Assembly (NCBI GenBank): GCA_963695855.1
Contig: CAVOHZ010000006.1
Coordinates: forward strand, 1 to 64,000
Source of the DNA: an uncultured Nitrososphaerales archaeon
GTDB lineage: Archaea > Thermoproteota > Nitrososphaeria > Nitrososphaerales > Nitrososphaeraceae
Direction of reading: 5' to 3'
DNA length: 64,000 bases
Both the position numbers and the translations under genes were made by a program. Each line of letters opens with the position of its first letter. Positions within the stretch are counted from its first letter, which is position 1. Shown piece after piece: positions 24,978 through 44,887 of the stretch. The notes under the pieces are model-generated. The model was given only the letters and a program-made list of their open reading frames with translations, was not told where the DNA came from and made no database searches.

Positions 24978-27014
24978 ATGAATTTCCCGAAAAATGATGA
25001 TTATAAAGATGATATTCAACCAATTTCCCTCACTGATGAACAAAGAAAGCTAGGAAGGGATCTATATTTATTATATAATGATATAATCAATGAGGCTGAA
25101 AAAATAAAAGAATATTTCAAGATAAATGACAGCAATTTTCAATCGAAGAATAAATGTTGTGACAACCTATTGTGTTATCTTGTTCTAAGAAAAAGAAACA
25201 TAGAACAACTTCAACTAAGATTGGCTAAGGACGGTCTTTCTTCTTTAGGAAGATTAGAAGATCATGTACTAATTAGTATAGAACAAATTTTGAAACATTA
25301 TGGATACACTATCAATTCTAATACAACTCTTGAGAAAATAAATCAAGCTGATGCTCAGACAATAATTGCAAACCGTAGTCGATTATTATTAGGACGCCCC
25401 CGAGATAATAGAACAACTCGTATAATGGTAACTGTAGATGCTAACATATCTCACCAGCCGCAATTGGTAGAGGAGTTGCTTAAGAACGGGATGGATATTG
25501 CAAGAATAAACTGTGCTTACGATAAAGAACAAAATTGGAAAATGATAATAGATTCTATCAGAAACGCTGAGGATAGGTTGATTCAGAGCGGTCGTGATGT
25601 TGGTAGAAAATGTAGAATAGTTATGGACTTAGCCGGACCGAAAATCAGAATAAAACAGACGAGTTTGGGCAAAGGTCCTTTAAAAATTACTGTTGCAAAA
25701 GACACACATGGCAAATGCGTTAAATTGGTCGAGGGATTTTTGGATTGTGAGGCCGAATATACAGAAAAAACAAATTTAACAGGTGTTCCTGAAAGCTTCG
25801 TAATTTCTGTATCAGATGGAAAGCAAGAATTAAGTGACCTTGAGGTAGGAGAAAGATTATTGTTTTATGATTCCCGGGGAAAATATCGAGGGATGACTGT
25901 TCTCGAAAAGGTTAGTAAAACCCGAATACGTGTTGGAATCGATAAATCAGTATATCTAGATGAGGGTTTAATTATATATAGAGAGAAAAATTTTATCAAG
26001 AAATTTTACATCAAAAACAAGGAAGAGAAAACTAATCTGTGCCCGTATCCTAGAGAAATTGCACGAGAGATTGTTATTGGTGCAATTAAACCACATCCGA
26101 TCGATCTTGAAGTAAAGACAGGTGATAAAATTTTGATCAATAAGAAAGAAATTGACAAAAACGCTGATCTTTTTGAAGGCTATGGTAGAATTAGTTGTAC
26201 AATGCCCGAAGTTTTAAGCAAAGTAGAGATAGGTGATAGAGTATTAATCGATGATGGAAAAATTGATGCTACAGTGGTATCCACCAACGATGAATATTTA
26301 GAATTAGAAATAACATATCCATCAGATAAGACTGCAAAGATTCAATCAGATAAGGGATTGAATTTTCCAGATTCAAATTTAGACATGCCTGCTATAACAC
26401 CCCAAGATATTAAAGATCTAAAATTTATTGTGAAAAAAGCAACTGCAGTAGGAATATCCTTTGCTCATTCTCCTGAGGACGTAAAAAATTTGTATGATGA
26501 GTTGGTAAAACTAGGAAATCCTGATTTTGGAGTAATCGCAAAAATAGAAAGTCGAAATGCTGTACACAATTTAGGAAAAATTCTTTTAACAGGTCTTTCT
26601 TTACCTAAATTTGGTATATTAATTGCGAGAGGGGATCTTGCTGTAGAAATTGGATTTGAAAATTTATCTCTAATTCAAGAGGATATCTTGTGTTTATGTG
26701 AGGCTGCACATGTTCCTGTTATTTTGGCTACACAAATTCTTGAAACACTAGCTAAGAGTGGTCTGCCTACAAGGGCTGAAATAACTGATGCCGCAAGAGG
26801 TCATAGGGCTGAATGCGTAATGCTAAACAAAGGCAACTTTATAGTCGAAGCGGTAAAGATATTATCATTATTATTAAAAACTGAACAACAGCATAATATA
26901 AAGAAAAGACAAATATTTAGGGAATTTACCTGGCAGAATGGCATATTTGATTTTGATAACAACGTTAAAAACAATGTCACTCATGGTCAAAGATATGCCA
27001 AGGTTCCGGCATAA
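24978..27014 (+). CDS. pyk: Pyruvate kinase, long form with N-terminal extension
   Basis: TRIMVT, GMDIARINC, MDLAGPKIR, IDDGKI, KGLNFP, AKIES, ARGDLAVE, ATQILE, PTRAEITD, CVMLN. Confidence 0.9.
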   Translation: MNFPKNDDYKDDIQPISLTDEQRKLGRDLYLLYNDIINEAEKIKEYFKINDSNFQSKNKCCDNLLCYLVLRKRNIEQLQLRLAKDGLSSLGRLEDHVLISIEQILKHYGYTINSNTTLEKINQADAQTIIANRSRLLLGRPRDNRTTRIMVTVDANISHQPQLVEELLKNGMDIARINCAYDKEQNWKMIIDSIRNAEDRLIQSGRDVGRKCRIVMDLAGPKIRIKQTSLGKGPLKITVAKDTHGKCVKLVEGFLDCEAEYTEKTNLTGVPESFVISVSDGKQELSDLEVGERLLFYDSRGKYRGMTVLEKVSKTRIRVGIDKSVYLDEGLIIYREKNFIKKFYIKNKEEKTNLCPYPREIAREIVIGAIKPHPIDLEVKTGDKILINKKEIDKNADLFEGYGRISCTMPEVLSKVEIGDRVLIDDGKIDATVVSTNDEYLELEITYPSDKTAKIQSDKGLNFPDSNLDMPAITPQDIKDLKFIVKKATAVGISFAHSPEDVKNLYDELVKLGNPDFGVIAKIESRNAVHNLGKILLTGLSLPKFGILIARGDLAVEIGFENLSLIQEDILCLCEAAHVPVILATQILETLAKSGLPTRAEITDAARGHRAECVMLNKGNFIVEAVKILSLLLKTEQQHNIKKRQIFREFTWQNGIFDFDNNVKNNVTHGQRYAKVPA

Positions 27015-27241
27015 CAGGTAACTTTGAAGTACGCTACTATTTCTGCAATTTTATATATATTATAGATAAAATAGTGAATAAACGATCGAAAATTAGGTCT
27101 TGGTTCTTTTGTTGGTTTCTTGTATTCGTGTCGTAGTTTTTACTACGAAAAGATAGATTAAGAAATAGAGTATTTTAATAAAGCTAATAGTTTCTATATT
27201 ATACTCACGCTATTTTTATCCACCTGTATTATATTTTAATC

Positions 27242-27907
27242 ATGCCTTGGGAACTTAGATGGTTTGAGAACGATATGACTAATCACAAATTAGCTTTGGA
27301 TTGGTTTAAAGGAATTGACAAAATATTTACCAGAGAGAATCTTCGAGAAGACAGATATATCTTTCTAGCAAATTGCGAAGATATTGGTATCAAGTTAAGG
27401 CCCTTTAATGATGAAACAACAAATAAACTGAGATTCAGACTTGAAATAAAATTGAGAAAAGATATAAAATCTGATTTTTCGGTAACAGGCAGACAGATAT
27501 ATGGTAATATGGAAGATTGGACAAAGTGGGGGTGGATTTTGGAGGACCTACCGGTATCAACAGATAGTATGGTTGACCCTTTTCGTGGTACAAATAATGC
27601 ACCTATATTAAAGTTGGAAAAATTGAGGTTTCTAAGAAGGTATCTTTTTGAAGAGAATGCATGTAAATCAGTGGAATGGATAAACATCGATAGGGATGAA
27701 GGATTACAATGCGAAATAACTCAAATTGTGAAAGGAAATGCTCCTGCATGGTGGACAATAGGATTTGAGAGTATCGGAAAGAAGAACAACGAGATCGAAT
27801 TTCGTAATGCAGTTCAAAACATCTTGAAAGATTTTGCGATAAAACTTGAAAGAAAGAATTCAAGTGGATACCCAGAATGGATCAAGTTGAATCAAAGTTC
27901 TTCTTAG
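27242..27907 (+). CDS. CYTH-like (triphosphate tunnel) protein
   Basis: N-terminal ELRWF, REDRY, GIKLR, LEIKLR, K.RFLR, EIT, GFE, GYPEW: Arg/Lys/Glu pattern of the TTM fold. Confidence 0.5.
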   Translation: MPWELRWFENDMTNHKLALDWFKGIDKIFTRENLREDRYIFLANCEDIGIKLRPFNDETTNKLRFRLEIKLRKDIKSDFSVTGRQIYGNMEDWTKWGWILEDLPVSTDSMVDPFRGTNNAPILKLEKLRFLRRYLFEENACKSVEWINIDRDEGLQCEITQIVKGNAPAWWTIGFESIGKKNNEIEFRNAVQNILKDFAIKLERKNSSGYPEWIKLNQSSS

Positions 27908-28018
27908 ATAAAAATTTTAGGCAGAAATTTCAAGAAATCTTTGACTGGTATGATATAGAAATCTACCATTTAAGCACCTATGGGATATATTGAAGAGATT
28001 CTGATATATTGAAGCATT

Positions 28019-28579
28019 TCATAGTGATTTGATATTCTTCTCATAATTCTTTATTCCGTCCAAAATTATTATTTTTGCTCTTTCTTTGTGTCCAATTTGT
28101 TTAATTTTAACAAATTTATTCTTTTCTAGATCCTTGTGATGTTCAATAAAGTGTATTAATTTTTTCAGGATATGTGAATTTATATCTTCTATGTCATTTA
28201 ACAACTCGTTGTCTTGTTCATCTGTTTTTGACGATGGTCTTGCAATTATTTTTGAGTCTGGTCCGTCTTGATCTTCAGTTAAGATTACTCCAATAGGGAC
28301 GCAGTTAACAACACTTTTCGGTTGTAACGAATCGATTCCGATAACAAAGACGTCTAAATTATCTTTGTAATTAGGTTTATCTGAATTTTCAAGAGTCTTT
28401 GGAATAAATCCATAATTAAAAGGATAGACCATTTCAACTGACAGTATTCTATCTACATACAAAATACCATCAGCAGGATCTAATTCATATTTTATGTTAC
28501 TACCCCTTGGAATCTCTATGACTACATTAATATCTTCTGGAGGATTTTTTCCGGAATGTAGAGTACTTGTAAAAGACAT
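28019..28579 (-). CDS. ppa: Family I inorganic pyrophosphatase
   Basis: VIEIPRGSNIKYE, VDRIL, YPFNYGFIPKTL, DNLDV, DQDGPDSKII, HKDLE. Confidence 0.93.
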   Translation of the reverse strand: MSFTSTLHSGKNPPEDINVVIEIPRGSNIKYELDPADGILYVDRILSVEMVYPFNYGFIPKTLENSDKPNYKDNLDVFVIGIDSLQPKSVVNCVPIGVILTEDQDGPDSKIIARPSSKTDEQDNELLNDIEDINSHILKKLIHFIEHHKDLEKNKFVKIKQIGHKERAKIIILDGIKNYEKNIKSL

Positions 28580-28899
28580 ATCTGAATAGATGGAATTATA
28601 AAATATAAAATATTTCTTTTGAATTTAGTCTTTGCTCCATAGAATTTCTTGTTAAAAAAATACTTGTTTCAATTTATTTTTTTTGAATATTACGCGACAC
28701 ATTTGGCTACATCATTTTATTTCCTTTACTAAATTTTGGTGGTTATTTAATATCTTGGACAGCATCATATTATCTAATATATCCAATTACCATATATTTT
28801 CTAACCAGACCTTATCATTAACATATCGGATAAACAGAAAGAGCCTTCTGTCATCATCTTTATTTCGGGTAATGTCATTACTATGAACTATTCCAAGAA

Positions 28900-29680
28900 G
28901 GCCACCAGACACAGGAGAAAGCAAGAGAATGATCATTAGTCAAACAGGAATGAACTACAAGACAGATAGAAGATATAATTGATAGAGTGCAATCAGATAC
29001 CATTAAACCCACATTTATAGAATCATGCACAAGTGGGGATTCAAACAGAAGGTACCAAGAAGAATACATGTAAATACAGCATCCAAAGAAGAGAAACAAT
29101 ATTTTAAAAAAGAGCAAGAAAGATACTGGATAATGACCAAGAAGGATTTACAGTAGTATCACTTGATGAATCATTCTTCTATGATTCTCTTGTCAGGAAA
29201 GTATGGATACGAAAAGAGGAAAGAGTAGTAGTAAGAATAACTGGTTCTCATCAGGAATCCGTTCTATTTGGTGCCACAAGTTTAGAAGGAAAACAGATGT
29301 TCAGGTAATATGACTGGATTGATGAAAACACCTTTTTAGATTATCTAAAACAGAAACACAGGAAATTTTCAAAATGTTAATTCTTTCTGGATAAAGCAAA
29401 ACAGGATCACAGATCAAAAAAGCTACTGGAATATTTTGATAAACACAAAAAGGATCTAATTCCAGTATATCTTCCAACAACATCTCCTGAATTTATGGTA
29501 CTGGAAAAGATATGACATTTAGTCAAAAACGACCTGCTTGTCTTACGATACTATCCGTCCTTTACAGATTTTACCAATAAAATATGTACACATTTTTTAA
29601 AATAAAGAGATTCAACCTGGATATGAGAAACTATCTACTTGCTAAAATTAATAATTAGAAGACATAACCTAGTTGGTATA
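28900..29680 (+). mobile_element. Degraded IS630 copy (same group as 18964 and 51132)
   Basis: DNA similar to the reverse complement of 18987-19720 with many stops; right end agttggtata. Confidence 0.85.
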
Positions 29681-29910
29681 GAAAATCTAGTATACAAAAA
29701 TTTTTTACAGCGACCTCATATTTTCAATATATTTAATCACACAAAATATAGGCATACAACAGAGATATTATACCTTCCTATTTTATGCTGTAGGTTATGA
29801 CAATTTATAATTTTGTTCATAGTGAAATATAGATCTCTATAAAACATATTTTCATTATTTATATTTTAATGGTTTTTTAGCCATGAATTTTCACAAAAAT
29901 GGTGCACATT

Positions 29911-29920
29911 CTTTATATAT
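29911..29920 (+). promoter_or_regulatory. Probable archaeal TATA box for 29944
   Basis: ctttatatat ~25-30 bp upstream of the ATG; equivalent sequence upstream of the 17771 start. Confidence 0.5.
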
Positions 29921-29943
29921 CTACTTTAAGGTAATATATACCA

Positions 29944-30357
29944 ATGAATATGAAGGCTTTTGCAATATCTATGGCGCTGTGCGTTATAGTAATGAATATT
30001 TTCTCATTGGGTAACATATACGCACTCTTGGATGACGATGGCAGATATATTATAGTAACAATAGAAAATGTCAAAAGCAGAGATATAGAACTTACAGGAT
30101 ATATATATGACGAAGATAAGGATAAAAAAATTGAAGGCAGTCCTCAACCTATTGAGAAAACTGCTTCACAAATTAAACACACATTTAAATTTGATAATGA
30201 CGATCTTAAAGTAGATGCAGGCCCAGGAACACAGTTCATTCTCTGTCTAGAGTTCAAGAGTGGAGCAGGAGAACCATCATGTTGGACAGACACCCTCAAG
30301 TCTGTAAGCCAACCAAACAGAGTAACACTGGATGCAGACTATATAAGGGATGATTAA
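29944..30357 (+). CDS. Secreted two-Cys protein, paralog 3 of 3
   Basis: Same signal peptide and motifs as 17340 and 8261. Confidence 0.85.
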   Translation: MNMKAFAISMALCVIVMNIFSLGNIYALLDDDGRYIIVTIENVKSRDIELTGYIYDEDKDKKIEGSPQPIEKTASQIKHTFKFDNDDLKVDAGPGTQFILCLEFKSGAGEPSCWTDTLKSVSQPNRVTLDADYIRDD

Positions 30358-30499
30358 ATCAGCTTTTCATTTTTATTTTTTTTTGAGATATAATTAATTA
30401 TATCCTATCTGAATCATCGTTTAATGCATCTCTTATGAATGAACAAACCTGATTCACATTATCCAATCTATATTTAATTCTCTCGCATTGAATAATCTG

Positions 30500-30965
30500 A
30501 GGTTATGGTGAAATCAGGAAACGAGGGCTGAAATTATGGACTGAGGGAGATGTATTTTGCAAGGATCATCTGCCAATGATTACCTGATTTCATAAAGGAA
30601 GGAATAGAGGAATAATAATCTTGATATTCCTGTACAAGAGAAGTCATTGCTTCATATTGTAGGTAGGAAAGTAAAATATGGTTCCACTACATTTACGGAT
30701 AAATATAGTAGAAAATATGACCAAGTGCAAGAACAGGTTTTCATAGACAAATGTGCAAGTCACTTACAAAAAGAAAGAGCATGCAAATGGTACAGTTCAT
30801 GTGAATAACTATGGATGTAAAAGCGACACCTACCAGCTATGGATGAAAGAGATCGTGGCACTAAAAAAAACAAAATTTATGAACATATTCCAAACGTGCC
30901 AGTTTATCCATAACAATAGAACCAAGACAACAGGACAAAGATTCACGGAAATTCTTTGTAATTAG
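30500..30965 (+). pseudogene. IS1595-family transposase remnant
   Basis: KGRNRG.., FTDKY, EHANGTVHVNN..YQLWM fragments with frameshifts. Confidence 0.6.
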
Positions 30966-31231
30966 CAGATGGAAGATTCAGAAATAAGAGCAAATGGATT
31001 TTTTCTGAACTATTTACAAATGCGTTAATTATGTACATATGAGTTCTTGAAGGAACGAACACAAAAAAATGATGTAACAAAATAAGTAGATTATTTGTTG
31101 GTTATCTAGTTCCTTATTTTCACGACGAATATGTATAATAGAAAAGAAAGTGTAATAGATGTGATGGTGGCACAATACATCTATTTTTACAAATCTTCTT
31201 TTATCTATGACAAACACAGTCTGATTGATAT

Positions 31232-32674
31232 ATGGAAAAATTTGATCTTATAGTTATCGGTTCAGGCGCAGGACTCGACGTGGCCAAAGCAGGGGCCGAG
31301 AAAGGACTAAAAGTTGCCATTATTGAAAAATCCAAATTAGGAGGAACCTGTCTAAACGTAGGAGGGATACCTTCAAAATTACTTATTTATAGCGCCGACA
31401 TAATTGAAATAATTAAGAAGGCAGAAACTTTCGGCATTAATGTTGATAAATATTCCATTGATTTTGAAAAGATGATAAGTAGGGTTATTAAAATTATCGA
31501 CACTGCAGCAAACGAGATTAAAAAAGAATTACAAGAAAGCAATAATCCTCGTCTTTTCTTACAAGATTGTAAATTCATAGGAAACAAGAAAATTTCAATA
31601 GCAAATGAGGTTATAACTGCAGATAAAATTCTCATTGCATCAGGAACAAGACCAAATATTCCAAAAATCAATGGCTTAGAAAATGTAAATTATATAACTA
31701 GTACTGAAGCATTATGTCTAAAATATCAACCAAAAACTCTTACTATAATAGGTGGTGGCTATATTGCCTGCGAATTCGCTCATTTCTTTGGTGCGTTGGG
31801 AACTAAAATAAATATAATACAAAGGAATGATTTATTGATCCCAAATGAAGATATAGATGTTTCACGGAAATTTACAGAGATATTTTCAAAAAAATACAAT
31901 GTATATTTAGGATGTAATACGGAAACGGTTCGTTATAATTATCACAATACAAATAATCAAGAGACATTTAATGTAATAATTAAGGACAAATTTGGAAAGT
32001 GCATGGAAATCTATTCGGAACAGTTACTAATTGCAACAGGTCGAACACCAAATTCGGATTTATTAGATATCGAAAAAAGCGGTATTAAAAGAAATGAGAA
32101 AGGTTTCATACTTGTTGATGAATATTTGGAGACAAATATAAAAGGAATTTTTGCAGTAGGAGATGTTGTTGGAAAATTTCAATTCAAACATAATGCCAAC
32201 AACGAAGCACGCTATGCATACAATAATATACTTTATCCTGATAACAAATTACCTGTAAATTATAATGCAATCCCTCATGCTATTTTTACGAGTCCACAAA
32301 TTGCAGGTGTAGGATATACAGAACAACAACTAAAGAAAGAAAAGATAGAATATGTTAGGTCTATATACCCTTATATTCAAACAGCAATGGGAAAAGCAAT
32401 AGAAGATAAAGACGGATTTGTAAAATTTCTTATCGATAAAAAAAATAAATATATTCTTGGGTGTCACATCATGGGAACAGATGCGTCGATTTTGATTCAT
32501 GAAGTATTAGTTGCAATGACAACGGGAGAAGGAAAGATAGATAACATAACTAATACTATTCACATTCATCCAGCGTTATCGGAAGTAGTAGGTAGAGCTG
32601 CTTCTGTTCATAATCTTGACATAGTTGTTCCCCTTGGTACTTGTATAACTCCATACCTCTTCCTTCACCTTTAA
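31232..32674 (+). CDS. Class I pyridine nucleotide-disulfide oxidoreductase (Lpd/MerA/mycothione-reductase-like) with altered redox motif
   Basis: VIGSGAG, GGTCLNVGGIPSK, IIGGGYIACE, ATGRTPN, AVGDV, HIHPALSE. Confidence 0.9.
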   Translation: MEKFDLIVIGSGAGLDVAKAGAEKGLKVAIIEKSKLGGTCLNVGGIPSKLLIYSADIIEIIKKAETFGINVDKYSIDFEKMISRVIKIIDTAANEIKKELQESNNPRLFLQDCKFIGNKKISIANEVITADKILIASGTRPNIPKINGLENVNYITSTEALCLKYQPKTLTIIGGGYIACEFAHFFGALGTKINIIQRNDLLIPNEDIDVSRKFTEIFSKKYNVYLGCNTETVRYNYHNTNNQETFNVIIKDKFGKCMEIYSEQLLIATGRTPNSDLLDIEKSGIKRNEKGFILVDEYLETNIKGIFAVGDVVGKFQFKHNANNEARYAYNNILYPDNKLPVNYNAIPHAIFTSPQIAGVGYTEQQLKKEKIEYVRSIYPYIQTAMGKAIEDKDGFVKFLIDKKNKYILGCHIMGTDASILIHEVLVAMTTGEGKIDNITNTIHIHPALSEVVGRAASVHNLDIVVPLGTCITPYLFLHL

Positions 32675-32772
32675 AAGTTATTTTTATTTTAGAAGGCGAT
32701 TGAGAATACCAACTCTTCCAAGTCGTACAAGCAGAATTATTAACTACAAATGCAATTAGTAAAATCTTGGGA

Positions 32773-34386
32773 TTAAGACATTTTCTTCCAGCTCTCTATT
32801 TCCTTGATAATCGCTATGGGTCTTTCTGTAATTAGGGGGAGCTTACCTCCATAAACCGATCCAGTGGTACCATCTAATGTAATGTAGTCTCCCTCGTTGA
32901 GAATATCCTTGTTAATAATACATGTCCGTTCTTTAAGATCTATCAATATTTCGCGACAGCCCACAATACACACTTTATCCATTTGTCTTGCAACTACTGC
33001 TGCATGAGATGTTCTTCCACCCTGATTCGTAACTAGCCCAGAGCATACGGCTATACCTGCAATATCATCAGTGGATATATCTTGACGAACTAGTACAAGT
33101 TGCCCGCCTTCGCTAGTCTTGCCAGTAGCTCTCTCTGAATCTAGCACGATTTTGCCCACTGCCACTCCACGATTTGCAGATATTCCTTTACATAATACCT
33201 TTAAATTAGAAGATGAAGATAAACTCGTTCTCGATATCTTATTTAAATCATATTTTTTAACTCTCTCCAACCCAGTAGCAAAATCTATCAATCCTTCATT
33301 CACTAGGTCCACAGCAATTTGAATAGCGGCCCAAGACGTTCGTTTACCAGTCCTTGACTGCAGAATAAAGAGCTTTCCTTCCTGAATTGTGAATTCAAAG
33401 TCCTGCATATCTTTGAACTCTGTTTCCAAACGCAACTTTATGTTCTGTATTTTCTTATATACTTGGGGCATTATCTTCTTTAGCTTTTCTGCATTCCTAA
33501 CTGCATGTCGGCCGGATACTATGTCCTCTCCTTGTGAATTGAAGAGGAAATCTATGTACAGACTATCTTCGCCTGTAGCGGGATCCCTAGTAAAAGCTAC
33601 GCCTGAACCCGATGTGGCTCCCATATTTCCAAAAACCATAGCTTGGATTATGGCCGCAGTTCCTATCAGATCCCTGATATCATGAAGCCTACGATATTCA
33701 ATCGCCCTTGGACTGTTCCAGGATCTAAAGACTGCTCCAATCGCTTCCCTCAGCTGAACGAGAGGCAGTTGGGGAAATGGAACATGTACATGTTCCTCAA
33801 ATATTTTCATGTAGATTCTTGACAAACTCTTGAGTTCTTCCGCACTGAGCTCTCTGACGTCCCTTAATCCTTTATTGATAATATCCTCTTTCAATATACT
33901 TTCAAAAAAATTTGGAGGACAACCATACACAACTTTAGCATATGTTTCAATCAATCGTCTATACGAATCCCAGACAAATTTTGGGTTTCCAGTCATTCTG
34001 ATCAACCCATCTATTGTAGAATCACAGAGACCGACATTCAATATTGATTCCAACATCCCCGGCATAGAAACTGCTGCGCCAGAACGGACGGATAAAAGTA
34101 AAGGCCTTCGTGAGCCTCCAAAAGTAAGACGGCTTGTATCTTCAATTTTCTTGATAAAGAATTCCACGGTATCTTCAAAATTCGGTGGAAGAATTTGATT
34201 ATTCCTCAGATACCTATCGCAAATTGATGTGCTTATCACAAATCCAGGGGGAACAGGGAGCATGATTTTGTCCATTCTCATTAGGTACATCGCCTTAGAA
34301 CCTACTTCAAATCCGCTAGGAAAGTGTGCATGAGAATTGGATGATCCGAAGAAATAGATATTTCCTTGATCTGTTTTGGTGGTCAT
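32773..34386 (-). CDS. Pyruvate phosphate dikinase-like protein lacking the C-terminal PEP/pyruvate domain
   Basis: GSKA, PVPPGFVI, LLSVRSGAAVSMPGM, QAMVFGN, TRDPATGE, QGEDIVSG, LQSRTGKR, GGRTSHAAVVAR. Ends after LDGTTGSVY. Start placed at MTTK (537 aa). Confidence 0.9.
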   Translation of the reverse strand: MTTKTDQGNIYFFGSSNSHAHFPSGFEVGSKAMYLMRMDKIMLPVPPGFVISTSICDRYLRNNQILPPNFEDTVEFFIKKIEDTSRLTFGGSRRPLLLSVRSGAAVSMPGMLESILNVGLCDSTIDGLIRMTGNPKFVWDSYRRLIETYAKVVYGCPPNFFESILKEDIINKGLRDVRELSAEELKSLSRIYMKIFEEHVHVPFPQLPLVQLREAIGAVFRSWNSPRAIEYRRLHDIRDLIGTAAIIQAMVFGNMGATSGSGVAFTRDPATGEDSLYIDFLFNSQGEDIVSGRHAVRNAEKLKKIMPQVYKKIQNIKLRLETEFKDMQDFEFTIQEGKLFILQSRTGKRTSWAAIQIAVDLVNEGLIDFATGLERVKKYDLNKISRTSLSSSSNLKVLCKGISANRGVAVGKIVLDSERATGKTSEGGQLVLVRQDISTDDIAGIAVCSGLVTNQGGRTSHAAVVARQMDKVCIVGCREILIDLKERTCIINKDILNEGDYITLDGTTGSVYGGKLPLITERPIAIIKEIESWKKMS

Positions 34387-34474
34387 ATCTAATTGCAAGC
34401 AACACTTGATGTTATGTTGGTTAATTGTAGGAAGTTGCCAAGACAATTCTCTGCTTTGAAATATGATAAGTAGA

Positions 34475-36484
34475 TCAAATTGCAAGAACCTCATTGGCAT
34501 AGTCTCTTAATATCACAGCAGATTTAGTGAGTGAGTCGGTCCCCTCCTCTATATTCTTTGAGATTTCAGATAATATATGTAATTGCTTAAAATTATTTGA
34601 CTCATTCATTATAGCGGCGTTCACCTTACGGGTTACATCATCTGCTTGGTGTTCTAATGTAATGATTTTATCTATAGTTTCAAGAAAATCATCAATTTCT
34701 TCACGGGTACTCCATTTGTCTATAATTTTTACGTTTTCAATTGCCTTGAGGTACTCCATTGAACTATGCACAGCTAATTCTGCAAGGTCTAGTAGAGGTT
34801 CATAAAAATCTCCTATGATTTCTTCTTTAGAAACCAATGTCAATAAGAAAAGGGTTTCCTCCATGGAATCGGCAGCATCATCCGCATTACTCACGAAGTT
34901 CTCAAATACAATAGAGGCATTTGACCGCTTAAGTATAACACGAATATTATTCAACAAAGCGTCAGCATTTTTCTCCCAGACTTTCACTCTTTCGGCATTT
35001 CTCGTAATAAATTCTTGGTCGTCACTCTCTATCTGAACCAGGCCGTCCCTTACTATTGTACTAATTTCAACTACCAAAGATGCATGATTTGCAGCTATGT
35101 TTAGAAGGCTTTCATCAATACTGCGAAAATTTTTGGCGAGTTCAACTCTCACTTCATCACGTATTAGAAATTCCGATTTGCCTTCTATCAATCCTTCAGC
35201 ACAAGTTTGGAGAACAAATTTTAGGAATTCAATCGCCTTTTCTCTACTAAGAACATCCTCGAATTTATCCCCGAAATGAAGAGGGGACTTTGCAGTTTTT
35301 TTTATAGCATCGAAAATTAATTGTTCTCCGCCCATCTTCAGAAATCCCATATGACCCAAATCATTATCTGCAGCCCATTTCAATATGCTGAAGACATCCT
35401 CTTTCTTTACGAATATACCCAGACGTTTTCTTGCACGATTCCAATCAATTAGAAATACTATACGTGACGCCAAGAAAGAAAGATAGACTTCTAGATCCAT
35501 AGGATTTTTTGCGACATAAGTTCCGATGGAGATATGATACAGTCCAGAACCTTTAAATTTTTCACTTTGCCTTGATGTTGTGTTTTCCCACTTTACGTCA
35601 AATCTGTCAAGCATTGAATGAAAAAAAATTAGTCTTTGAATGTGTATATCAGAACAAGTTACTGAAACTGTCATTTCCTTAATTTTAATAACAAGTACGT
35701 GCGCATCAGTAGTTCCTATATCATTTTGGATTAATAACATATCTGCTGAACGGGTGGCTGTTGTATCCAGTCCAGGATGTTCAAACTTTAATTTTTTTGA
35801 TTTATTAATTCCCTTCATGAATGCTCGTACTAGTACCTTGTCATTGTCCGTTATCCCATAGACTTTCGCTCCATCGATGGATTCGTGATATATTAGAGAC
35901 TGTAGTCTGTTAAGCTCCTTATGAATTCCCATAACAAGAAGATGAAAACTGTCTCGATTTTTTGGTTCACCAGAAATAATATTGTCTATAATCAAATCTG
36001 AAATAATATCTTCATCTATTCTGGGGATTGTTGCCAATAGATCCTTGAATCTATTACGAAGACTATCATAATCTGCTATTTGGAACAGTTTTGAATTGGT
36101 AACTAAATTCGAGTCGTGTATTCTTTTTTGATCAGTTGGTTCGAAAAAAGTTTGTAAAGGAAGAATCATTTGCTTAATATTTTCGATTATATTGGCAATT
36201 ATAGGATTTACGTTGGGTATGTAATAGTAATTTTCAAGATCCGGCGTTTTGACGCTGTATTCTACTACTCTATCAAGATTAGTGTCTTGAATACCGCATT
36301 CTTCACGCTCGTTCCTAAGGTTTGAAAGTTCAATTTGAGGATTATCAGCGTGATGTTTTGCCATCTGAAGTAGTGAAAAAAAATACTTTACTCTGTCATT
36401 AGCATCGAACGCATCTGAAATCAGCTTTGGAAGTAAAAGTTCTCTAATTCCTAATTCTCGTATTATTTCTGCTTTCTCTGTCAA
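34475..36484 (-). CDS. Large DUF47/PhoU-like phosphate transport regulator domain protein
   Basis: C-terminal helical repeats WEKNADAL..DDAADSMEE and LEHQADDV..IEEGTD. N-terminal domain with HPGLDTTATR and IQNDIGTTDAHVL. Confidence 0.75.
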   Translation of the reverse strand: MTEKAEIIRELGIRELLLPKLISDAFDANDRVKYFFSLLQMAKHHADNPQIELSNLRNEREECGIQDTNLDRVVEYSVKTPDLENYYYIPNVNPIIANIIENIKQMILPLQTFFEPTDQKRIHDSNLVTNSKLFQIADYDSLRNRFKDLLATIPRIDEDIISDLIIDNIISGEPKNRDSFHLLVMGIHKELNRLQSLIYHESIDGAKVYGITDNDKVLVRAFMKGINKSKKLKFEHPGLDTTATRSADMLLIQNDIGTTDAHVLVIKIKEMTVSVTCSDIHIQRLIFFHSMLDRFDVKWENTTSRQSEKFKGSGLYHISIGTYVAKNPMDLEVYLSFLASRIVFLIDWNRARKRLGIFVKKEDVFSILKWAADNDLGHMGFLKMGGEQLIFDAIKKTAKSPLHFGDKFEDVLSREKAIEFLKFVLQTCAEGLIEGKSEFLIRDEVRVELAKNFRSIDESLLNIAANHASLVVEISTIVRDGLVQIESDDQEFITRNAERVKVWEKNADALLNNIRVILKRSNASIVFENFVSNADDAADSMEETLFLLTLVSKEEIIGDFYEPLLDLAELAVHSSMEYLKAIENVKIIDKWSTREEIDDFLETIDKIITLEHQADDVTRKVNAAIMNESNNFKQLHILSEISKNIEEGTDSLTKSAVILRDYANEVLAI

Positions 36485-36989
36485 CTAATCTGCCACGGAA
36501 TAAATATTATGCATATGATATATTCATATAAATAGATTGTATATATAGTCCATAGAGCAACGTGCATATATCGTTTATTCTTTGGAGACAATGGTAAAAT
36601 TGTCCTTTATTTAATAGCACTAAAGAATAGATAGTTGAAAAATCTATTATTTTTCGAGGATGTTGATATGCCTTTACTTGTTGTGAAAGTGGCCATAACA
36701 AGAGTTATATCCATTGCCTTTGTACAAACCTCACAATTCTTTATCTCTTTTTTTTTGAAATATCAGAACGGACTCAATATGCTCAATTAACAGTAATTTC
36801 ATTTCTATTTAGAATTTCTTTTACTTTTCATGTTTATAGTATTTTTGATTCGTACAATAGTAATTGTTATTCTTATTGTATATACCGTGTCCAATAGAGC
36901 GGCCTATAACTGTCTATGTAGATGAAAGAGATCTAAATGATCAATGTTAAGAATTACTATATAGCTACATTGATTATTTTAAAATCTTC

Positions 36990-38348
36990 ATGAATCCGCA
37001 TCGAGAAAATTTGTTTCAGGATGAATTATATTTACTTGATTTTATGGACGCATCCGTTAATTGGACAAAATTAAATCTAGAATATATATCTGTATATATA
37101 GACACATATTTTAGCACCTCCCAGGATGTTCTAAAACTTGGACAATGGGACACATTCTACGATAGATGGTTATCAAATATCGACAGAGAATTAGAATGCG
37201 AGTTAGGCTCCAGGCAATTTACTAGTAATTTGAAAGATTGGATGAAGTCTACCATTAAATTACGATCAACTTATCGTACATTAGGATTTCCTATCGAACA
37301 TTACGACGAACTACTTTATTCAATCAAGAAGTTTATGATGAGTCTTTATGTTTTTCCTTTGATGCAAGAATTTGGATACTCTACTCCTTCAGAAGTGGTC
37401 TATACACTAGGAAAGGTTACTCTCCGTCACTATAAAAACAGTCAAAGTAAGCTTACCGCTGTTGGACTTCCTGTACTTATTGTATATGCACAGATTAATA
37501 GATTCAACATACTAGATATAAGCTCTGACAGAAGTGTGGTGAGGAATCTAACATCAAACGGTTTGGATGTGTACGTTCTGGATTGGGGGTACTCTGGAAG
37601 TCAAGATGATAACAGATCTGTTGAGGATTACGTGAAAATACTACACAGTGTTATGGATATCATCACTTCAAGGCACAAAAAAAATGATAAAATATCGATT
37701 CTAGGATATTGCTGGGGAGGATTAATTTCAATTATTTTCACAGCGCTTCATCCAGACAGAGTAAACGCTCTAGCTCTACTGGCTTCACCTGTTGATTCTA
37801 GCAAGGATAACAGTTTGCTAGCTGTTTGGGCACGCTCTATCGATGCTGATATGATAATACAAGAATTTGGTCATATGGATGGACAGATTCTTGACCTTGC
37901 TTTTATTATGAGGAATCCACCAAGAAACCTTTGTGACAAATATTTGAAATTGTTCAAAAACTTCAACGATAAACATTTTGTGAATTCTTTTTTAGCAGTT
38001 GAAAACTGGCTCTTTCGCACTCCTCCGATACCTGGTGTATTGTACCGTCAAATTATAAACGACCTGTACAAGAGAAATCTCTTGATTAGAAATGATATCA
38101 AGATAAACGGCAAAGCGGTTGACTTGAAGAAGATAGATGTTCCATTGTTAAATATAGTCGCTGAAAATGATGATTTGGTATCACCAGCTTCTTCCCTGGC
38201 TGTAAACGAATACGTATCAAGCGTAGATAAGAAGTCGATTAAAATACCAGGAGGCCATGTAGGTTTGTTAATTAGCAAGAGGGCGCATGAGAAACTGTGG
38301 CCTGAAGTCGCAGACTGGATACTGCTGTCTAGGACAAGAAGAAAATAA
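36990..38348 (+). CDS. phaC: Class III PHA synthase with N-terminal extension
   Basis: TPSEVVY, LIVYAQINRFNILD, DVYVLDWG, lipase box GYCWGG, catalytic Asp (ENDDLV) and His (GGHVGL). Confidence 0.88.
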   Translation: MNPHRENLFQDELYLLDFMDASVNWTKLNLEYISVYIDTYFSTSQDVLKLGQWDTFYDRWLSNIDRELECELGSRQFTSNLKDWMKSTIKLRSTYRTLGFPIEHYDELLYSIKKFMMSLYVFPLMQEFGYSTPSEVVYTLGKVTLRHYKNSQSKLTAVGLPVLIVYAQINRFNILDISSDRSVVRNLTSNGLDVYVLDWGYSGSQDDNRSVEDYVKILHSVMDIITSRHKKNDKISILGYCWGGLISIIFTALHPDRVNALALLASPVDSSKDNSLLAVWARSIDADMIIQEFGHMDGQILDLAFIMRNPPRNLCDKYLKLFKNFNDKHFVNSFLAVENWLFRTPPIPGVLYRQIINDLYKRNLLIRNDIKINGKAVDLKKIDVPLLNIVAENDDLVSPASSLAVNEYVSSVDKKSIKIPGGHVGLLISKRAHEKLWPEVADWILLSRTRRK

Positions 38349-38399
38349 CAATATGTTCCGGTTTCAATCTAATTACTGTTATGGATTTTCTCAATGTTT

Positions 38400-38510
38400 T
38401 GCTTCTTTGTTTACCTTCCTTTCCTGGTTTGGTAAGTGGTCACGCATGATCTGTAAGATCAGGAACATTCAAGCTGGATTTGCCATGAGGTAAAAGTAAT
38501 ATTTTTTCAT
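38400..38510 (-). pseudogene. SixA 5' remnant (copy of the 49988 gene)
   Basis: HGKSSLNVPDLTDHA*PLTKPGKEG vs HGKSSWDNPDTADHERPLTNRGKEG; upstream DNA also matches 49800-49987. Confidence 0.75.
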
Positions 38511-39479
38511 TTTGGAGACAGATTATTTATATTTATATTAATTCTTAGACCTTTATCATAAGTGGAAAAAACTTAAGGAACAAATAATTAAATTTGATAA
38601 AATTTTAACTGTGCAATTCAACTTTTAGGTATCAATACAAAAATGAGCAGTGAATGGTTCTGATAGTATTTTTGGCCCTTGAACCTGTAAATTATCTCCA
38701 TGTATTTTTACATTGATACTTATTAAGAATCATAAAATAAAGAAAATTTTGAGATGTATTACATATTCTTCTTAAATCAATTGACACAAACTATCATTTT
38801 CACAAAGGGTTCGGATCATATTTAGAAGTATAATCGGTAATTATACAATTTCATAGTTGGTAGTATTCTTGTATTCAATAGTCTCTTGATTTCTCCTTTG
38901 GTCTTTGAGTGGAATGCAGTGACAGGAAGTTAGAAAGTCCAAATTTTCAGGATAAGGAATGATGTAAAGCATCATTGCATGAATTGCCAATATTATTTTA
39001 TTTGTGATTCTACTATGACAGGACTCATGCCCTGTTATAATCAGATAAGATTTGAATTTCAATTTGAACAGAATTTTAAAAAATAGGAATCTTTCTTCCT
39101 CTGCTTTTAAATGATAGGATATTTACAATATATTTTAGGGATTTTTAACCATCTCCTTCTTTTTGATATCCGTTCAGATATCTGTAGGAAACTGGCTCTG
39201 GAAATGTGGGGGATGTTTATAGCTACAAGTTACTCTCCGTCAATCGCGTTTGCGTCCAAGATACCATAGTCTAGTCTTGATCTTTTTCATATCGCACATA
39301 ATCTCACACTGCTTAATCCGAACGATCAAAAAATGTCCAAATGCTATAGCATGATAGAAATTATATAATCACATGCGAGTTTAAATTCCAATATTGTTTT
39401 AGAATTACTTCTCATTCCTTTTAACTTGAATGCGAATAATTCATCATGTATCTCATAGATTTCCAGACAACACGTCTTT

Positions 39480-39749
39480 TGCCAGATGTAGTTTTATTAA
39501 TTATAATTATAAGATTATTTTTTATTTGTTTATTTTATTCTTCCTTTCGTGTTTATTTTTATTATTATATTTTGATGTATTTATTGTCTCTATATCACTA
39601 CCAATTTTTTTTACTTCAGATTGTAGTCTAGAGATTTGAGATCCTTTGTTTTCGAATGGCGTTGGAATGGATTTTCTTCTACTGCAAATAATTGACCTAT
39701 ATTAAAGATAAAACAATTGAAGTTTTTGAGAAGGCATCTTTTTGAAGAA
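39480..39749 (-). pseudogene. Remnant paralog of the 47711-48343 gene, cut by IS5
   Basis: 39570-39642 closely matches 48003-48075. Confidence 0.65.
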
Positions 39750-40820
39750 TAGATCTTTTGCGTAATAGATAAGCTTACAGCTATATTCCTCTTTTTTAGC
39801 AGTTATATTTCGTAGATTTGCTAAATTACGATAGATTATCCAGAAAACTACAAATGTTCAGGTCATTTACAGAATTGGAATTAACAGAATTTGATTCAAT
39901 TTACAAGGAAATTGAATCCAGATATAATGAATACGAGGTAAAACGTCTCTCTAAAAGAAAGAAGAGAAGAATAAGACCTGTAGGTATGGGAGGTAGACAC
40001 TTCAAACATCCAGTAAGAGATAGATTTCTTATGCTTTTGGTGTACTACAGATTATACATAACACATACACTTTCTGGTTTTCTGTTTGACTTGGACCAGA
40101 GCAATGTGTACAGGGATATAAGATACATAGAACCTTTAGTCAAAAAATGTATTCCATTACCAGAAAAACTGTACAATAGTACAAGACGGTTGAGATCTGT
40201 AGAAGAGGTAGAAAAGTACTTTCCTGAATTTAAGGCATTTATAGATGCAACCGAACAGGAGATACAAAGACCAAAAAACAAAAGAAAGAGGAGAAACTAC
40301 TATTCGGGCAAGAAGAAAAGACATACCGTAAAGACGCAGTACATGGTAAACAAAGAAGGAAAGATATTACATAAATCAGACCACAGAAAAGGAAGACAGC
40401 ATGACTATTCTGTTTACAAGGATCAACATCCTGCTACACCATCACAAGTAGAAAACTATTTTGATCTTGGATACCAAGGAATAAAAAATGATTTTCCAGA
40501 TCTGAAAGTAGCATTGCCAGCAGTAAAGAAGAAACGTAATATTGATCTTACCAAACAGGAGAAAAGGTACAATAGAAAACAGCGTAAACAGCGAACAATA
40601 GTAGAACATACAATCTGCAGGATAAAAAAATTTGGTATTATGAGTACCAGATACAGGAACAGACTGAAAAGATATGATACAGTATCAGATATTGTATCGG
40701 GTCTTGTTAATTACAGAATCATAAAGAAGAGTAATAATCTATCGCTACTATAGAACAAGAATACAGACAGAGAAGAGTAATAGGAGATTACAAAAATTGT
40801 TCAATTACGCAAGACATCTA
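39750..40820 (+). mobile_element. IS5-family (ISL2/IS1381-like) element, intact transposase 39818-40753
   Basis: TIRs tagatcttttgcgtaa / ttacgcaagacatcta; IDATEQ, YSGKKKRHTVK, DLGYQG, RTIVEH. Confidence 0.92.
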
Positions 40821-40904
40821 ATATACATATAGATAAATAGATGCATAAATATCGATAAAAATGATGAGTTACAATGTAAAATAAGGAAAATTACGAGAAA
40901 ATGC

Positions 40905-41100
40905 TTCTGCATGCTTGACAATAGAATTTGAGAGTATCGAAAAGAAGAACAACAAGATCGGATTTGGTAATGCAGTTCGAAACATCTTGAAAGATTTCAC
41001 AATAAAACTTGAAAGAATTCAATTGGATACCCAGAATGGGGCAAGTTGAATCATAAAAGTTCCTCTTGGATAAAAGGCTCGTCCAAAAATTCAAAGCAAT
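40905..41100 (+). pseudogene. 3' remnant of the CYTH-like gene (copy of 27745-27930)
   Basis: gacaatagaatttgagagtatcgaaaagaagaacaac..ggatacccagaatgg closely matches 27750-27885. Confidence 0.8.
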
Positions 41101-41352: not shown

Positions 41353-41901
41353 TTGTACAAATTGGATCTATATATTATGAGGCATGGTGACGCTGGAAAA
41401 CGTCTTTCCGATTCTATACAAGACCGGTCAAGATCGTTAACACAACAAGGTCTGAAAGAAGTCAGAACGATTTCAAAATCTTTAAAGCTTCTAGATGTTA
41501 AATTCGATACAATATTTTCTAGTCCTCTCCCAAGAGCATTACAAACAGCTATTATTGTTGCTAATCAGTATAAATTAAAAAATAAAATAGAAAAATATGA
41601 TGAATTAATTTCTCAACAAGACAGGTTCATATTCTATGATATATTGGCTAATTATAATCGAATGTCTTCGATTCTAATTGTTGGACATGAACCATATCTC
41701 AGTACCATGATTAGTGACATCATATCAAATAGTGACGATAAAAATAAGACTAATAATGACATAAAATCAAATAGTAATATTATCCTAAAAAAGGCAGGTC
41801 TATCAAAAATTAGAATAACTTCTACTGTACCTACTTTACAAGGAGAATTAAGATGGTTACTTACACCAAATATTTTAAAAGAAGTCAAAGATACGTCATA
41901 A
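41353..41901 (+). CDS. sixA: Phosphohistidine phosphatase SixA
   Basis: MRHGDA, RSLT, SSPLPRALQTA, VGHEP. Confidence 0.9.
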   Translation: MYKLDLYIMRHGDAGKRLSDSIQDRSRSLTQQGLKEVRTISKSLKLLDVKFDTIFSSPLPRALQTAIIVANQYKLKNKIEKYDELISQQDRFIFYDILANYNRMSSILIVGHEPYLSTMISDIISNSDDKNKTNNDIKSNSNIILKKAGLSKIRITSTVPTLQGELRWLLTPNILKEVKDTS

Positions 41902-42047
41902 CTTTACTGCCTGATATATCTTGTATTAAATTTTCATATCCTTGCAGATAATTTTCTATTGTCTACTAAATTTACTATGATATACTATATTGAATACATA
42001 TGTAAAACTAAAATTTCTTGTTCCTATATAACTATTGAATCAATATC

Positions 42048-42575
42048 TTGGAACTCTATATACTTAGACACGGAGAGACATCTAAAAAACTGTACTCCTC
42101 TGTAGATTCCAATCACTCTCTCACATTTTCAGGAAAATCTGAAATTGAAGAAATAGGCAATTCAATTAAAAAATTAAGAATCAAGATCGACTTAATATTA
42201 ACAAGTACTATCTCTTCAAGTCTAGAAACTGCGGATATAATAAATAATTTATTTAACAAAAAAATAAAAATCTTAAAATGCGAAGATCTACAACCAGAAG
42301 GAAACATATTAAATGTTTACAAAATTATATCTGAATTTGATCAAATGTCTTCGATTCTAATTGTTGGACATGAACCATATCTCAGTACCATGATTAGTGA
42401 CATCATATCAAATAGTGACGATAAAAATAAGACTAATAATGACATAAAATCAAATAGTAATATTATCCTAAAAAAGGCAGGTCTATCAAAAATTAGAATA
42501 ACTTCTACTGTACCTACTTTACAAGGAGAATTAAGATGGTTACTTACACCGAGACTATTAAAGAGTATTATCTAG
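42048..42575 (+). CDS. sixA: SixA paralog with degenerate active-site arginines
   Basis: LRHGET and VGHEP kept; HSLT and SSLETA replace RxLT and RAxQTA. Confidence 0.8.
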   Translation: MELYILRHGETSKKLYSSVDSNHSLTFSGKSEIEEIGNSIKKLRIKIDLILTSTISSSLETADIINNLFNKKIKILKCEDLQPEGNILNVYKIISEFDQMSSILIVGHEPYLSTMISDIISNSDDKNKTNNDIKSNSNIILKKAGLSKIRITSTVPTLQGELRWLLTPRLLKSII

Positions 42576-44164: not shown

Positions 44165-44167
44165 TAA

Positions 44168-44887
44168 ATGACACAGGTAAAGATAAAAGGATCTAGTAAT
44201 ACAATAACTAATACGACAACTAAAAAAAATAAGGACAATTTAAAAGGTAAATTAATTATAGTTGAAGGAATTGATGGATCAGGAAAATCGACACAAATTC
44301 ATCTTCTTGATAAATGGCTTAAATTTAAGAATCTACAATCTTTTTTATCAGAGTGGAATTCATCTGAAATTGTAAAAAATGTAACCTCTAGAGGTAAGAA
44401 AAAAGAACAACTTACACCTACAACATTTTCGTTGCTGCACTCAACTGATTTTGCAGATCGGTACGAAAGGAATATTTTTCCGTTATTAAGGGCTGGTTAC
44501 ATAGTGTTGGCAGATAGATATATCTATACAGCATATGCACGAGATATAGTAAGGGGATGTGATCCACAATGGGTCAAAAAAGTATATGATTTTGCTTTAA
44601 AACCTGATATCACATTTTATTTCAGAGTTCCGGTGGATATAGCTGCAGGACGAATATTATCTGGAAGACCCAAGTTGAAATATTACGAGGCGGGAATGGA
44701 TCAAAATTTAAGTAATGATATTTATGAAAGTTATCGTATTTTTCAAAGTAGAATAATAGAACAATATGACAAAATGGTAATACCTGAAAATTTCGCTGTT
44801 ATAGATGGAACACTAAATATAGAAGAACAACAAAATATGGTTAGAGAAAAATTTAACAATACTATTCCTGCAGAGATGTTAAAATGA
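44168..44887 (+). CDS. Thymidylate kinase-like protein A (probable PPK3 subunit)
   Basis: P-loop EGIDGSGKST, ADRYIYT, KPD, YYEAGMD. Confidence 0.85.
   Translation: MTQVKIKGSSNTITNTTTKKNKDNLKGKLIIVEGIDGSGKSTQIHLLDKWLKFKNLQSFLSEWNSSEIVKNVTSRGKKKEQLTPTTFSLLHSTDFADRYERNIFPLLRAGYIVLADRYIYTAYARDIVRGCDPQWVKKVYDFALKPDITFYFRVPVDIAAGRILSGRPKLKYYEAGMDQNLSNDIYESYRIFQSRIIEQYDKMVIPENFAVIDGTLNIEEQQNMVREKFNNTIPAEMLK

Follow-up and report, generated by a model that had tools for sequence, protein, structure and literature searches.

What can a pyruvate, phosphate dikinase (PPDK) do when it lacks the barrel that binds pyruvate and phosphoenolpyruvate (PEP), and what does it share with the protein encoded beside it? 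The question is raised by two adjacent genes in a 64,000-nucleotide (nt) stretch of DNA from an uncultured Nitrososphaerales archaeon (positions 1 to 64,000 of the forward strand of contig CAVOHZ010000006.1, assembly GCA_963695855.1), hereafter the window. The genes encode a DUF47 protein of 669 amino acids (aa), termed P1, and a barrel-less PPDK, termed P2. An earlier note on this DNA, made from the letters alone, had suggested that P2 cannot make PEP and may instead be an autokinase dependent on inorganic phosphate (Pi) that phosphorylates P1. A neighbouring PPase was to pull the reaction and SixA proteins were to reset it, linking phosphate status to the storage of polyphosphate (polyP) and polyhydroxyalkanoate (PHA). 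The domain analysis and genome comparison described here lead us to propose that P1 and P2 form one functional unit in polyP or phosphate metabolism with P1 as the acceptor module, a proposal for and against which we see evenly balanced chances.

Domain content of P1 and P2

The P2 gene (32773..34386, minus strand) codes for 537 aa if translation begins, as is likely, at M39 of a longer open reading frame (ORF). The full ORF covers 32773-34500 (575 aa), with its first ATG at 34500, and the inner start at 34386 is preferred because PPDK homology opens at ORF residue 48 (TIGR01828 positions 4–514 of 865) and because close homologs of P2 are 536–548 aa long. Residues 1–384 (33235..34386, minus strand, limits approximate) form a PPDK-type ATP-grasp nucleotide-binding domain and a linker, and residues 397–515 (32842..33198, minus strand) form a phosphohistidine swivel domain. 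The only Pfam matches of P2 are to PPDK_N (PF01326, E = 3e-40) in the first of these parts and to the PEP-utilizers mobile domain (PF00391, E = 5e-21) in the second. The protein is collinear with residues 5–516 of a solved PPDK of 875 aa (E = 5e-125), its swivel domain can be aligned with 2fm4, the central domain of PPDK in isolation, and its C-terminus falls at the linker leading into the PEP/pyruvate barrel. These family matches and alignments bear out the earlier description of a PPDK with ATP-grasp and phospho-His domains that ends at ~537 aa.

The predicted phospho-carrier of P2 is His461 (codon 33004..33006, minus strand), which lies in GGRTSHAAVVAR. Both T459 and H461 are invariant among 37 sequences, as are K31, R101, G110, R144, E331, Q343, and R345. 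The P2 residues that align with the ATP site of PPDK are also invariant in this set, the site being assigned by a PPDK residue numbering that we take to be correct. P2 scores 575.6 bits against the PPDK model TIGR01828, which is under the curated equivalog cut-off of 843.45, and it scores weakly (36–51 bits) against families of the rifampin phosphotransferase, glucan water dikinase, and phenylphosphate synthase types. The NCBIfam model NF004531 (PRK05878.1, 534 positions), titled pyruvate, phosphate dikinase, was rejected as a marker of barrel-less forms since full-length PPDKs clear its cut-off (491–493 bits); 5 of the 14 control genomes pass it as well.

The barrel itself (PEP-utilizers_C, PF02896) has no match in the whole genome, an assembly of 3.55 Mb in 11 contigs that is 99.87% complete, and the same search was positive in 14 of 14 control genomes. 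P2 is the sole PPDK_N gene and the sole mobile-domain gene of the genome. The claim that P2 cannot synthesize PEP therefore holds, as the genome offers no PF02896 barrel. The claim that neither the gene nor the window contains a PEP/pyruvate TIM barrel is right as far as PF02896 is concerned and fails in its wider form, since the window has a pyruvate kinase barrel at 24978-27014. The absence of PF02896 is not unusual here because only 18 of 61 genomes of the same taxonomic family carry one. By Pfam, neither P1 nor P2 contains HisKA/HATPase_c or Hpt domains, nor PP_kinase, PPK2, or thymidylate-kinase-like domains. A role in anti-phage defence was rejected, as PADLOC assigned no family to P1 or to P2.

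The P1 gene (34475..36484, minus strand) opens with a TTG codon, a start that agrees with the homologs in alignment A1. Several PhoU/DUF47 bundles had been suspected in P1, where there is only one, matched by PF01865 (DUF47/PhoU_div) at residues 465–650 (37.4 bits against a cut-off of 24.4). This is the sole family match of P1, and NCBIfam gave none. The C-terminal domain (residues 438–669; 34478..35173, minus strand) is a DUF47/PhoU-like six-helix bundle whose fold matches entry 3l39 (Foldseek E = 4e-4, TM-score 0.84 on the target), and a sequence search of the PDB with alignment A1 returned only this PhoU-like entry. The C-terminal 230 aa share with DUF47/PhoU_div and PhoU proteins the six-helix fold and the acidic motifs, which are invariant in the P1 bundle as D535/D539/E542 and E611/D615/R619. 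Standalone DUF47 proteins are typically small and encoded beside a phosphate transporter. The solved members matched here have 207–225 residues, whereas P1 has 669, with an unrelated N-terminal domain of 437 aa and a dikinase as partner, and the top neighbour families of the pair include no recurrent transporter.

The N-terminal domain of P1 (residues 1–437; 35174..36484, minus strand) is predicted to be a new α/β domain with many invariant His, Arg, and Lys residues. The earlier note had called it unexplained, and it has no match in Pfam or NCBIfam and none by Foldseek against the PDB at E ≤ 1e-3, where the listed TM-scores are all <0.3. In the ESM Atlas it matched one unnamed cluster (0.81). 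Homology to the DUF47 part has an hhalign probability of 0.1%, and homology to any P2 domain 0.3%. The AF2 model of whole P1 has a pLDDT of 86.3, and that of residues 1–437, built from 41 sequences, has a pLDDT of 89.9 and a pTM of 0.84; in the model, helices surround a beta meander that spans about residues 241–324. Among these 41 sequences, 48 columns of the domain are invariant, of which 14 are His, Arg, or Lys. They include H181, H188, H236, H262, H281, and H378; R60, R145, R284, R341, and R352; K353, one of three Lys; and D347, W348, and N349. The P1 motifs HPGLDTTATR (residues 236–245), QNDIGTTDAHVL (residues 253–264), and DIHIQRL (residues 279–285), quoted in the earlier note together with GGRTSHAAVVAR of P2, were all located.

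The N-domain is widespread. Its profile matched 1358 of 1.84 billion cluster representatives at E ≤ 1e-3, and the best 150 matches have the same architecture, are fragments thereof, or are fusions. Whole P1 has >4000 homologs at E ≤ 1e-3 (8000 candidates scored), mostly of 640–680 aa, and the mean column identity is 55–56% for P1 and 57% for P2. The N-domain is therefore of interest in its own right, being a large and strongly conserved domain that has no family model or fold match and occurs in >1000 sequence clusters from both prokaryotic domains.

Conservation, fusion and age of the pair

Both ORFs lie on the minus strand where the earlier note had placed them, with the PPDK just downstream of the 669-aa protein. 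A spacer of 88 nt (34387..34474, minus strand) separates the stop of P1 from the start inferred for P2, and at other loci the gap ranges from an overlap to about 130 nt. The pairing was surveyed with alignment A1 in a scan that took one genome for each prokaryotic species and gave 554 stretches confirmed by tblastn out of 598; a scan with the single P1 sequence gave no relative. Locus counts below refer to the best 80 loci (L024–L103) of the 554 confirmed stretches. These loci span Nitrososphaerota, Methanomicrobiales, Planctomycetota, Pseudomonadota, Actinomycetota, and others. In 72 of the 80, a P2 homolog follows P1 directly downstream and in the same orientation. Contig edges explain four of the eight loci without P2 (L040, L044, L059, and L065), and the true exceptions are L079, L080, L090, and L091 from Stellaceae/Rhodospirillales (genomes G217–G220). 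The pair is thus conserved.

The 72 partners comprise 66 complete P2 genes, four cut by contig ends, and two in pieces (L053 and L075). The complete partners extend no more than 42 aa past the alignment, leaving no room for a barrel, with the exception of L050. There the P2 homolog (L050:4322-7276, 984 aa, from a Methanoregula metagenome-assembled genome (MAG)) carries 470 additional C-terminal aa, which form an amine-oxidase-like flavoprotein domain. In L075, from a Solemya gill symbiont, P1 and P2 are spread over several ORFs, and in L053 P2 is in two; the broken genes may be pseudogenes or assembly errors. Some genomes hold two or three copies of the pair, for example G108 on contigs C598, C96, and C527. 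L063 and L064 are two contigs of one Dongiaceae MAG, in which each copy of the pair lies near its own PPX/CHAD set.

Homologs in which the two proteins form one chain tie them even more closely. A search for longer proteins found 74 homologs of 1183–1243 aa, and all 74 are single chains with P1 followed by P2. The median linker is 34 aa, none of the chains has a barrel, and the GGxTSHAA motif is intact in 65. These fusions are the strongest computational evidence we have that P1 and P2 would act as one unit. Together with the same-strand neighbourhood, they uphold the functional tie between the PPDK and the DUF47 protein that the earlier note had drawn from one locus. A co-fold of whole P1 with P2 residues 385–537 (alignments A1 and A3) returned ipSAE values of 0.00 and 0.01, which is evidence neither way. 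The strict pairing and the natural fusions make the system a clean experimental target.

P2 could also be read as a recently truncated and decaying PPDK, or as a PPDK that makes PEP with a barrel from elsewhere, and the public annotation as pyruvate, phosphate dikinase would suit either version. Both have become hardly credible in view of the relatives of P2. The closest of these are not full-length: the best 120 homologs, found in a search that covered lengths up to 940 aa, are all 324–582 aa long and contain only PF01326 and PF00391. The 66 complete barrel-less partners come from different phyla, and the genome studied here has no barrel. A quick maximum-likelihood tree with midpoint root was built from 60 sequences. 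Of these, 37 are rows of alignment A3, 3 are additional split forms, 13 were taken from the 74 fusions, and 7 are full-length PPDKs of Nitrososphaeraceae, Actinomycetota, and Alphaproteobacteria, two of them from genomes in which the pair occurs as well; the actinobacterial kinase VadK was not included. In this tree, a branch with an SH-aLRT of 100 parts the 53 barrel-less sequences (40 split, 13 fused) from the 7 full-length PPDKs, and the fusion of P1 and P2 arose at least twice. P2 is 42–55% identical to its barrel-less homologs (A3) and 36–41% identical to seven full-length PPDK-like ORFs. Genomes G076 and G059 hold the pair together with a separate full-length PPDK at another locus, so the pair is not a substitute for PPDK. 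As far as sequences can tell, the barrel-less PPDK belongs to a real and old family and is neither a broken gene nor a recent truncation.

By comparison with PPDK (TIGR01828; 5jvn, 1kbl), P2 has the same ATP-grasp and central phospho-His swivel domains, including the GGxTSHAA motif. It differs in lacking the PEP/pyruvate TIM barrel, in belonging to its own clade, in being paired or fused with P1, and in coexisting with true PPDK in some genomes. Many such genes are publicly named pyruvate, phosphate dikinase though they are unable to bind pyruvate or PEP. Reconstructions of gluconeogenesis that use them, in ammonia-oxidising archaea, methanogens, and phosphate-accumulating bacteria, are likely wrong. 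Literature searches found no paper on the P1–P2 pair, a query for DUF47 mostly matching DUF47xx names. The general notion that a barrel-less PPDK may serve as a His kinase, or that a swivel dikinase may have a different acceptor module, is already known; the obligate partner of new fold, the fused form, and the association with polyP appear to be undescribed so far.

The proposed phosphoryl acceptor and the link to polyphosphate

The genes around the pair give a first indication of the acceptor. Counts of PPX, CHAD, SixA, PPase, and pyruvate kinase come from HMM searches of the fetched flanks, many of which are short. PPX was found in 10 of the 80 loci and CHAD in 9, giving a union of 13, and ten of the assignments of PPX, CHAD, and thymidylate-kinase-like (TMK-like) genes were checked with Pfam. 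The chance expectation for PPX is estimated at well under one locus in 80. In L055 (Geobacteraceae) and L064 (Dongiaceae), the genes run TMK-TMK-CHAD-PPX-P1-P2 on one strand, with 4-nt overlaps at CHAD/PPX and PPX/P1 in the former and at CHAD/PPX in the latter. In the thaumarchaeal locus L024, ppx, sixA, and two TMK-like genes lie about 7 kb upstream of the pair. CHAD is also fused to the N-terminus of P1 homologs (P0100, P0121, and an ORF of L044). In L048 (Methanoculleus), CHAD and Metallophos are joined in one protein of 668 aa that adjoins PPX and the pair. Judged from gene order and these fusions, the link to phosphate and polyP recurs independently in other lineages. The earlier note had made this link for the window, where it had also pointed to phaC and sixA beside ppx; among the loci surveyed ppx recurs, sixA (3 of 80) is not a conserved neighbour, and a PhaC-like gene is confined to three thaumarchaeal loci.

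A neighbour census based on naive greedy ORF calls, which took the two nearest genes on each side and lists the 25 commonest families, gives a similar picture. Ppx-GppA_III is the commonest upstream family, with 5 of 138 proteins. An operon of sixA, ppx, and PPK3 has been published, mainly from Nitrososphaeraceae and Sulfolobaceae (PMC12995831). The pair lies beside or inside operons of this kind, with CHAD, in the window, L024, L055, and L064, by comparison with the accessible part of that publication. PPK3 differs from P2 in being a P-loop, thymidylate-kinase-like enzyme. The main text of the same publication, as distinct from its supplementary neighbourhood tables S2 and S3, contains no occurrence of PhoU, DUF47, or dikinase (PMC12995831).

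The proposed reaction starts from the chemistry that P2 has in common with PPDK. Judged from its domains and invariant residues, P2 keeps what the first two PPDK steps would need. In PPDK, ATP pyrophosphorylates the swivel His, Pi takes the outer phosphate as pyrophosphate (PPi), and the resulting His~P swings to the barrel. Rifampin phosphotransferase, glucan water dikinase, and the split phenylphosphate synthase are His-swivel dikinases with non-pyruvate acceptor modules, in which ATP-grasp and the His~P carrier feed a substrate-binding module that stands apart and in some cases belongs to another subunit. The pair would differ from these in that its acceptor module, P1, combines a new fold with a PhoU-like bundle. 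On account of the missing barrel, the constant pairing or fusion with P1, and the recurrent polyP genes, the acceptor is probably something other than pyruvate.

In the proposed mechanism, ATP would pyrophosphorylate His461 of P2 and the outer phosphate would leave with Pi as PPi, so that His~P remains; the reverse direction would begin from AMP and PPi. P1 would replace the missing PEP/pyruvate barrel as the third site, where His~P could be discharged or charged at the N-domain, backed by the PhoU-like bundle as a putative Pi- or metal-binding element. We infer the contact between P1 and P2, the phosphotransfer, the dependence on Pi, and the substrate. The conserved basic surface with its many His residues, the PhoU-like bundle, the fusions with CHAD, and the operons with PPX, CHAD, and PPK3 suggest that the acceptor may be an inorganic phosphate species, most plausibly the end of a polyP chain. 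The reaction would then be ATP + Pi + polyP(n) <-> AMP + PPi + polyP(n+1), running alongside PPX, CHAD, and PPK3. That polyP is the actual substrate seems to us doubtful, if far from negligible. More tentative still, and in our view unlikely, is the suggestion that P1–P2, or its fused form of 1200 aa, adds a fourth kind to the polyphosphate kinases, with a mechanism of its own: a phosphohistidine polyphosphate, phosphate dikinase whose N-domain is a new fold that accepts phosphoryl groups and binds polyP. If it were true, cells could remake ATP directly from AMP with polyP and PPi. An acceptor that is either polyP or PPi would mean a new enzyme class in polyP energy metabolism, a field in which the archaeal kinase PPK3 itself was identified only in 2024–2026.

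A regulatory phosphorelay, close to what the earlier note had in mind, uses the same first steps to another end. P2 would act as an autokinase that senses ATP·Pi / AMP·PPi through the level of its His~P and phosphorylates a conserved His of P1, for example H262 or H236, and the PhoU-like bundle would control proteins of polyP and Pi homeostasis. The pairing and the fusions fit such a relay, as do the six invariant His residues of the N-domain and a PhoU-like fold typical of phosphate-uptake regulators, and the polyP operon context suits a regulator as well as an enzyme. Autokinase activity in a barrel-less PPDK has a precedent in VadK (Rv1127c), a PPDK-derived protein of mycobacteria and other actinomycetes which, according to the accessible part of its description, autophosphorylates its catalytic His with ATP and Mg, interacts with methylcitrate-cycle enzymes, and is regarded as a regulatory His kinase (PMC13400623). 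P2 shares with VadK the barrel-less ATP-binding and phospho-His layout and the catalytic His, and differs in its DUF47 partner, none being mentioned for VadK in that part of the text (PMC13400623).

Other features fit the relay less well. No acceptor His has been pinned down on P1, and the ~48 invariant columns of its N-domain, many of them charged, resemble an active site or a ligand-binding site more closely than they do a simple phospho-acceptor. A conserved output partner is lacking, as the commonest neighbour families listed include neither a transporter nor a DNA-binding domain nor a Pit gene. The SixA proteins that would reset the relay occur in 3 of the 80 loci and the PPase that would pull it in none. 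Equally compatible with the findings, the relay is a serious possibility which we nevertheless lean against; an enzyme in which P1 serves as the module that binds the acceptor accounts for them at least as well.

The VadK precedent can also be taken in another direction, in which P1 is a mere regulatory or scaffold subunit and the target of phosphorylated P2 is an unlinked protein or an organic metabolite, after the manner of VadK and the methylcitrate enzymes (the precedent being limited to the accessible part of PMC13400623). No methylcitrate gene is among the 25 commonest neighbour families. The wider neighbourhoods of the pair do vary, and flavoproteins recur near P2. A Pyr_redox_2 flavoprotein of the disulfide-oxidoreductase type lies convergently downstream of the pair at Methanomicrobiales loci (7 of 129 downstream neighbours), another occupies the same place in the window (31232-32674), and the P2 homolog of L050 is fused to its amine-oxidase-like domain. 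The window and Methanoregula flavoproteins are only 24% identical and not clear orthologs, and the flavoprotein was rejected as a conserved partner on this ground. PPX and CHAD recur more than any other target family. Moreover, P1 is about as conserved as P2, its catalytic partner, and the order of the two is fixed in all 74 fusions; neither is expected of a mere regulator. We consider a scaffold role of P1 improbable.

Several observations weigh against P1–P2 as a polyP or phosphate enzyme with P1 as acceptor. PhoU-type domains are usually regulators, which favours a relay. In 67 of the 80 loci, no polyP gene was found in the fetched flanks, and the chance figure for PPX is an estimate and not a matched random-locus control, with related genomes that are not independent. 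The polyP neighbourhood in the window is secondary, having been made by an insertion flanked by insertion sequences (IS). The genome already has PPK3-like genes, PPK2 (C10:1246875-1247534), and PPX, so that no polyP enzyme is obviously missing; it has no PPK1. Genomes G217–G220 have P1 without a barrel-less P2, and their PPDK-like ORFs are full-length (874–928 aa), apart from one of 466 aa at a contig edge; P1 in these genomes may work with a full-length PPDK, or may be a relic. Finally, the one characterised barrel-less PPDK, VadK, is described as a regulatory kinase and not as a metabolic enzyme in the accessible part of its report (PMC13400623).

The insertion and the surrounding genes

The pair is carried by a block of ~12.2 kb (28802..40994) located between PPase (28019-28579) and sixA, which abut in relatives from the same genus. 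DNA searches against 24 other genomes of the genus found window 27056-28801 abutting window 40995-41867 on contig C24 of G019, and window 27056-28799 abutting window 41936-45676 on contig C78 of G014. P1 occurs in none of the 24 genomes, and window 32773-36484 is covered by none of the DNA matches listed. IS-like repeats present in multiple copies bound the block at 28941-29684 and 39818-40753. The GC content is 0.377 for the pair, 0.367 for the PhaC-like gene of the block, and 0.309 for the window. PPase and SixA adjoin the pair here because this IS-flanked block sits between their genes, and the parts that the earlier note had assigned to them are not supported, both adjacencies being made by the insertion and the SixA-like genes belonging to the sixA-ppx-PPK3 operon.

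IS-like elements are also found at 19003-19703 and 51169-51889, and there are two kinds in total. The first, a repeat of ~0.7 kb, has copies on several contigs, and the second, a DDE_Tnp_4 transposase gene, occurs many times in this genome and in the genus relatives G010 and G012.

Within the block, a PhaC-like alpha/beta-hydrolase paralog (36990..38348, plus strand) scores 322 bits against TIGR01836, under its cut-off of 365, and the canonical PhaC is encoded elsewhere in the genome (436 bits). The paralog accompanies the pair only at three thaumarchaeal loci, namely in the window, L024, and L025, and was probably co-acquired with it. The suggested link to PHA storage, which leaned on this divergent gene, is not borne out.

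Downstream of the block on the plus strand, two sixA-like genes (41353-41901 and 42048-42575), the genome's only Ppx-GppA gene (42536-44164), and two thymidylate-kinase-like genes follow in a row (41353-45663). The same order is seen in the archaeal polyP operon with heteromeric PPK3 described in the literature. On the other side of the PPase lie the genome's only CHAD gene (22889-23719, minus strand) and, near it, a calcineurin-like phosphoesterase (20465-21502, plus strand). The pyruvate kinase at 24978-27014 (plus strand) is a long form of 678 aa that scores 604 bits against NF011314, whose cut-off is 642. Its barrel occupies residues 364–621 and is preceded by about 360 extra N-terminal residues. 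This barrel was rejected as one that could serve P2 in trans, since pyruvate kinase is present in none of the 80 loci. Between the pyruvate kinase and the PPase, an ORF of 221 aa (27242-27907, plus strand) matches neither Pfam nor NCBIfam; it has counterparts of 84–86% DNA identity beside the PPase gene in G019 and G014.

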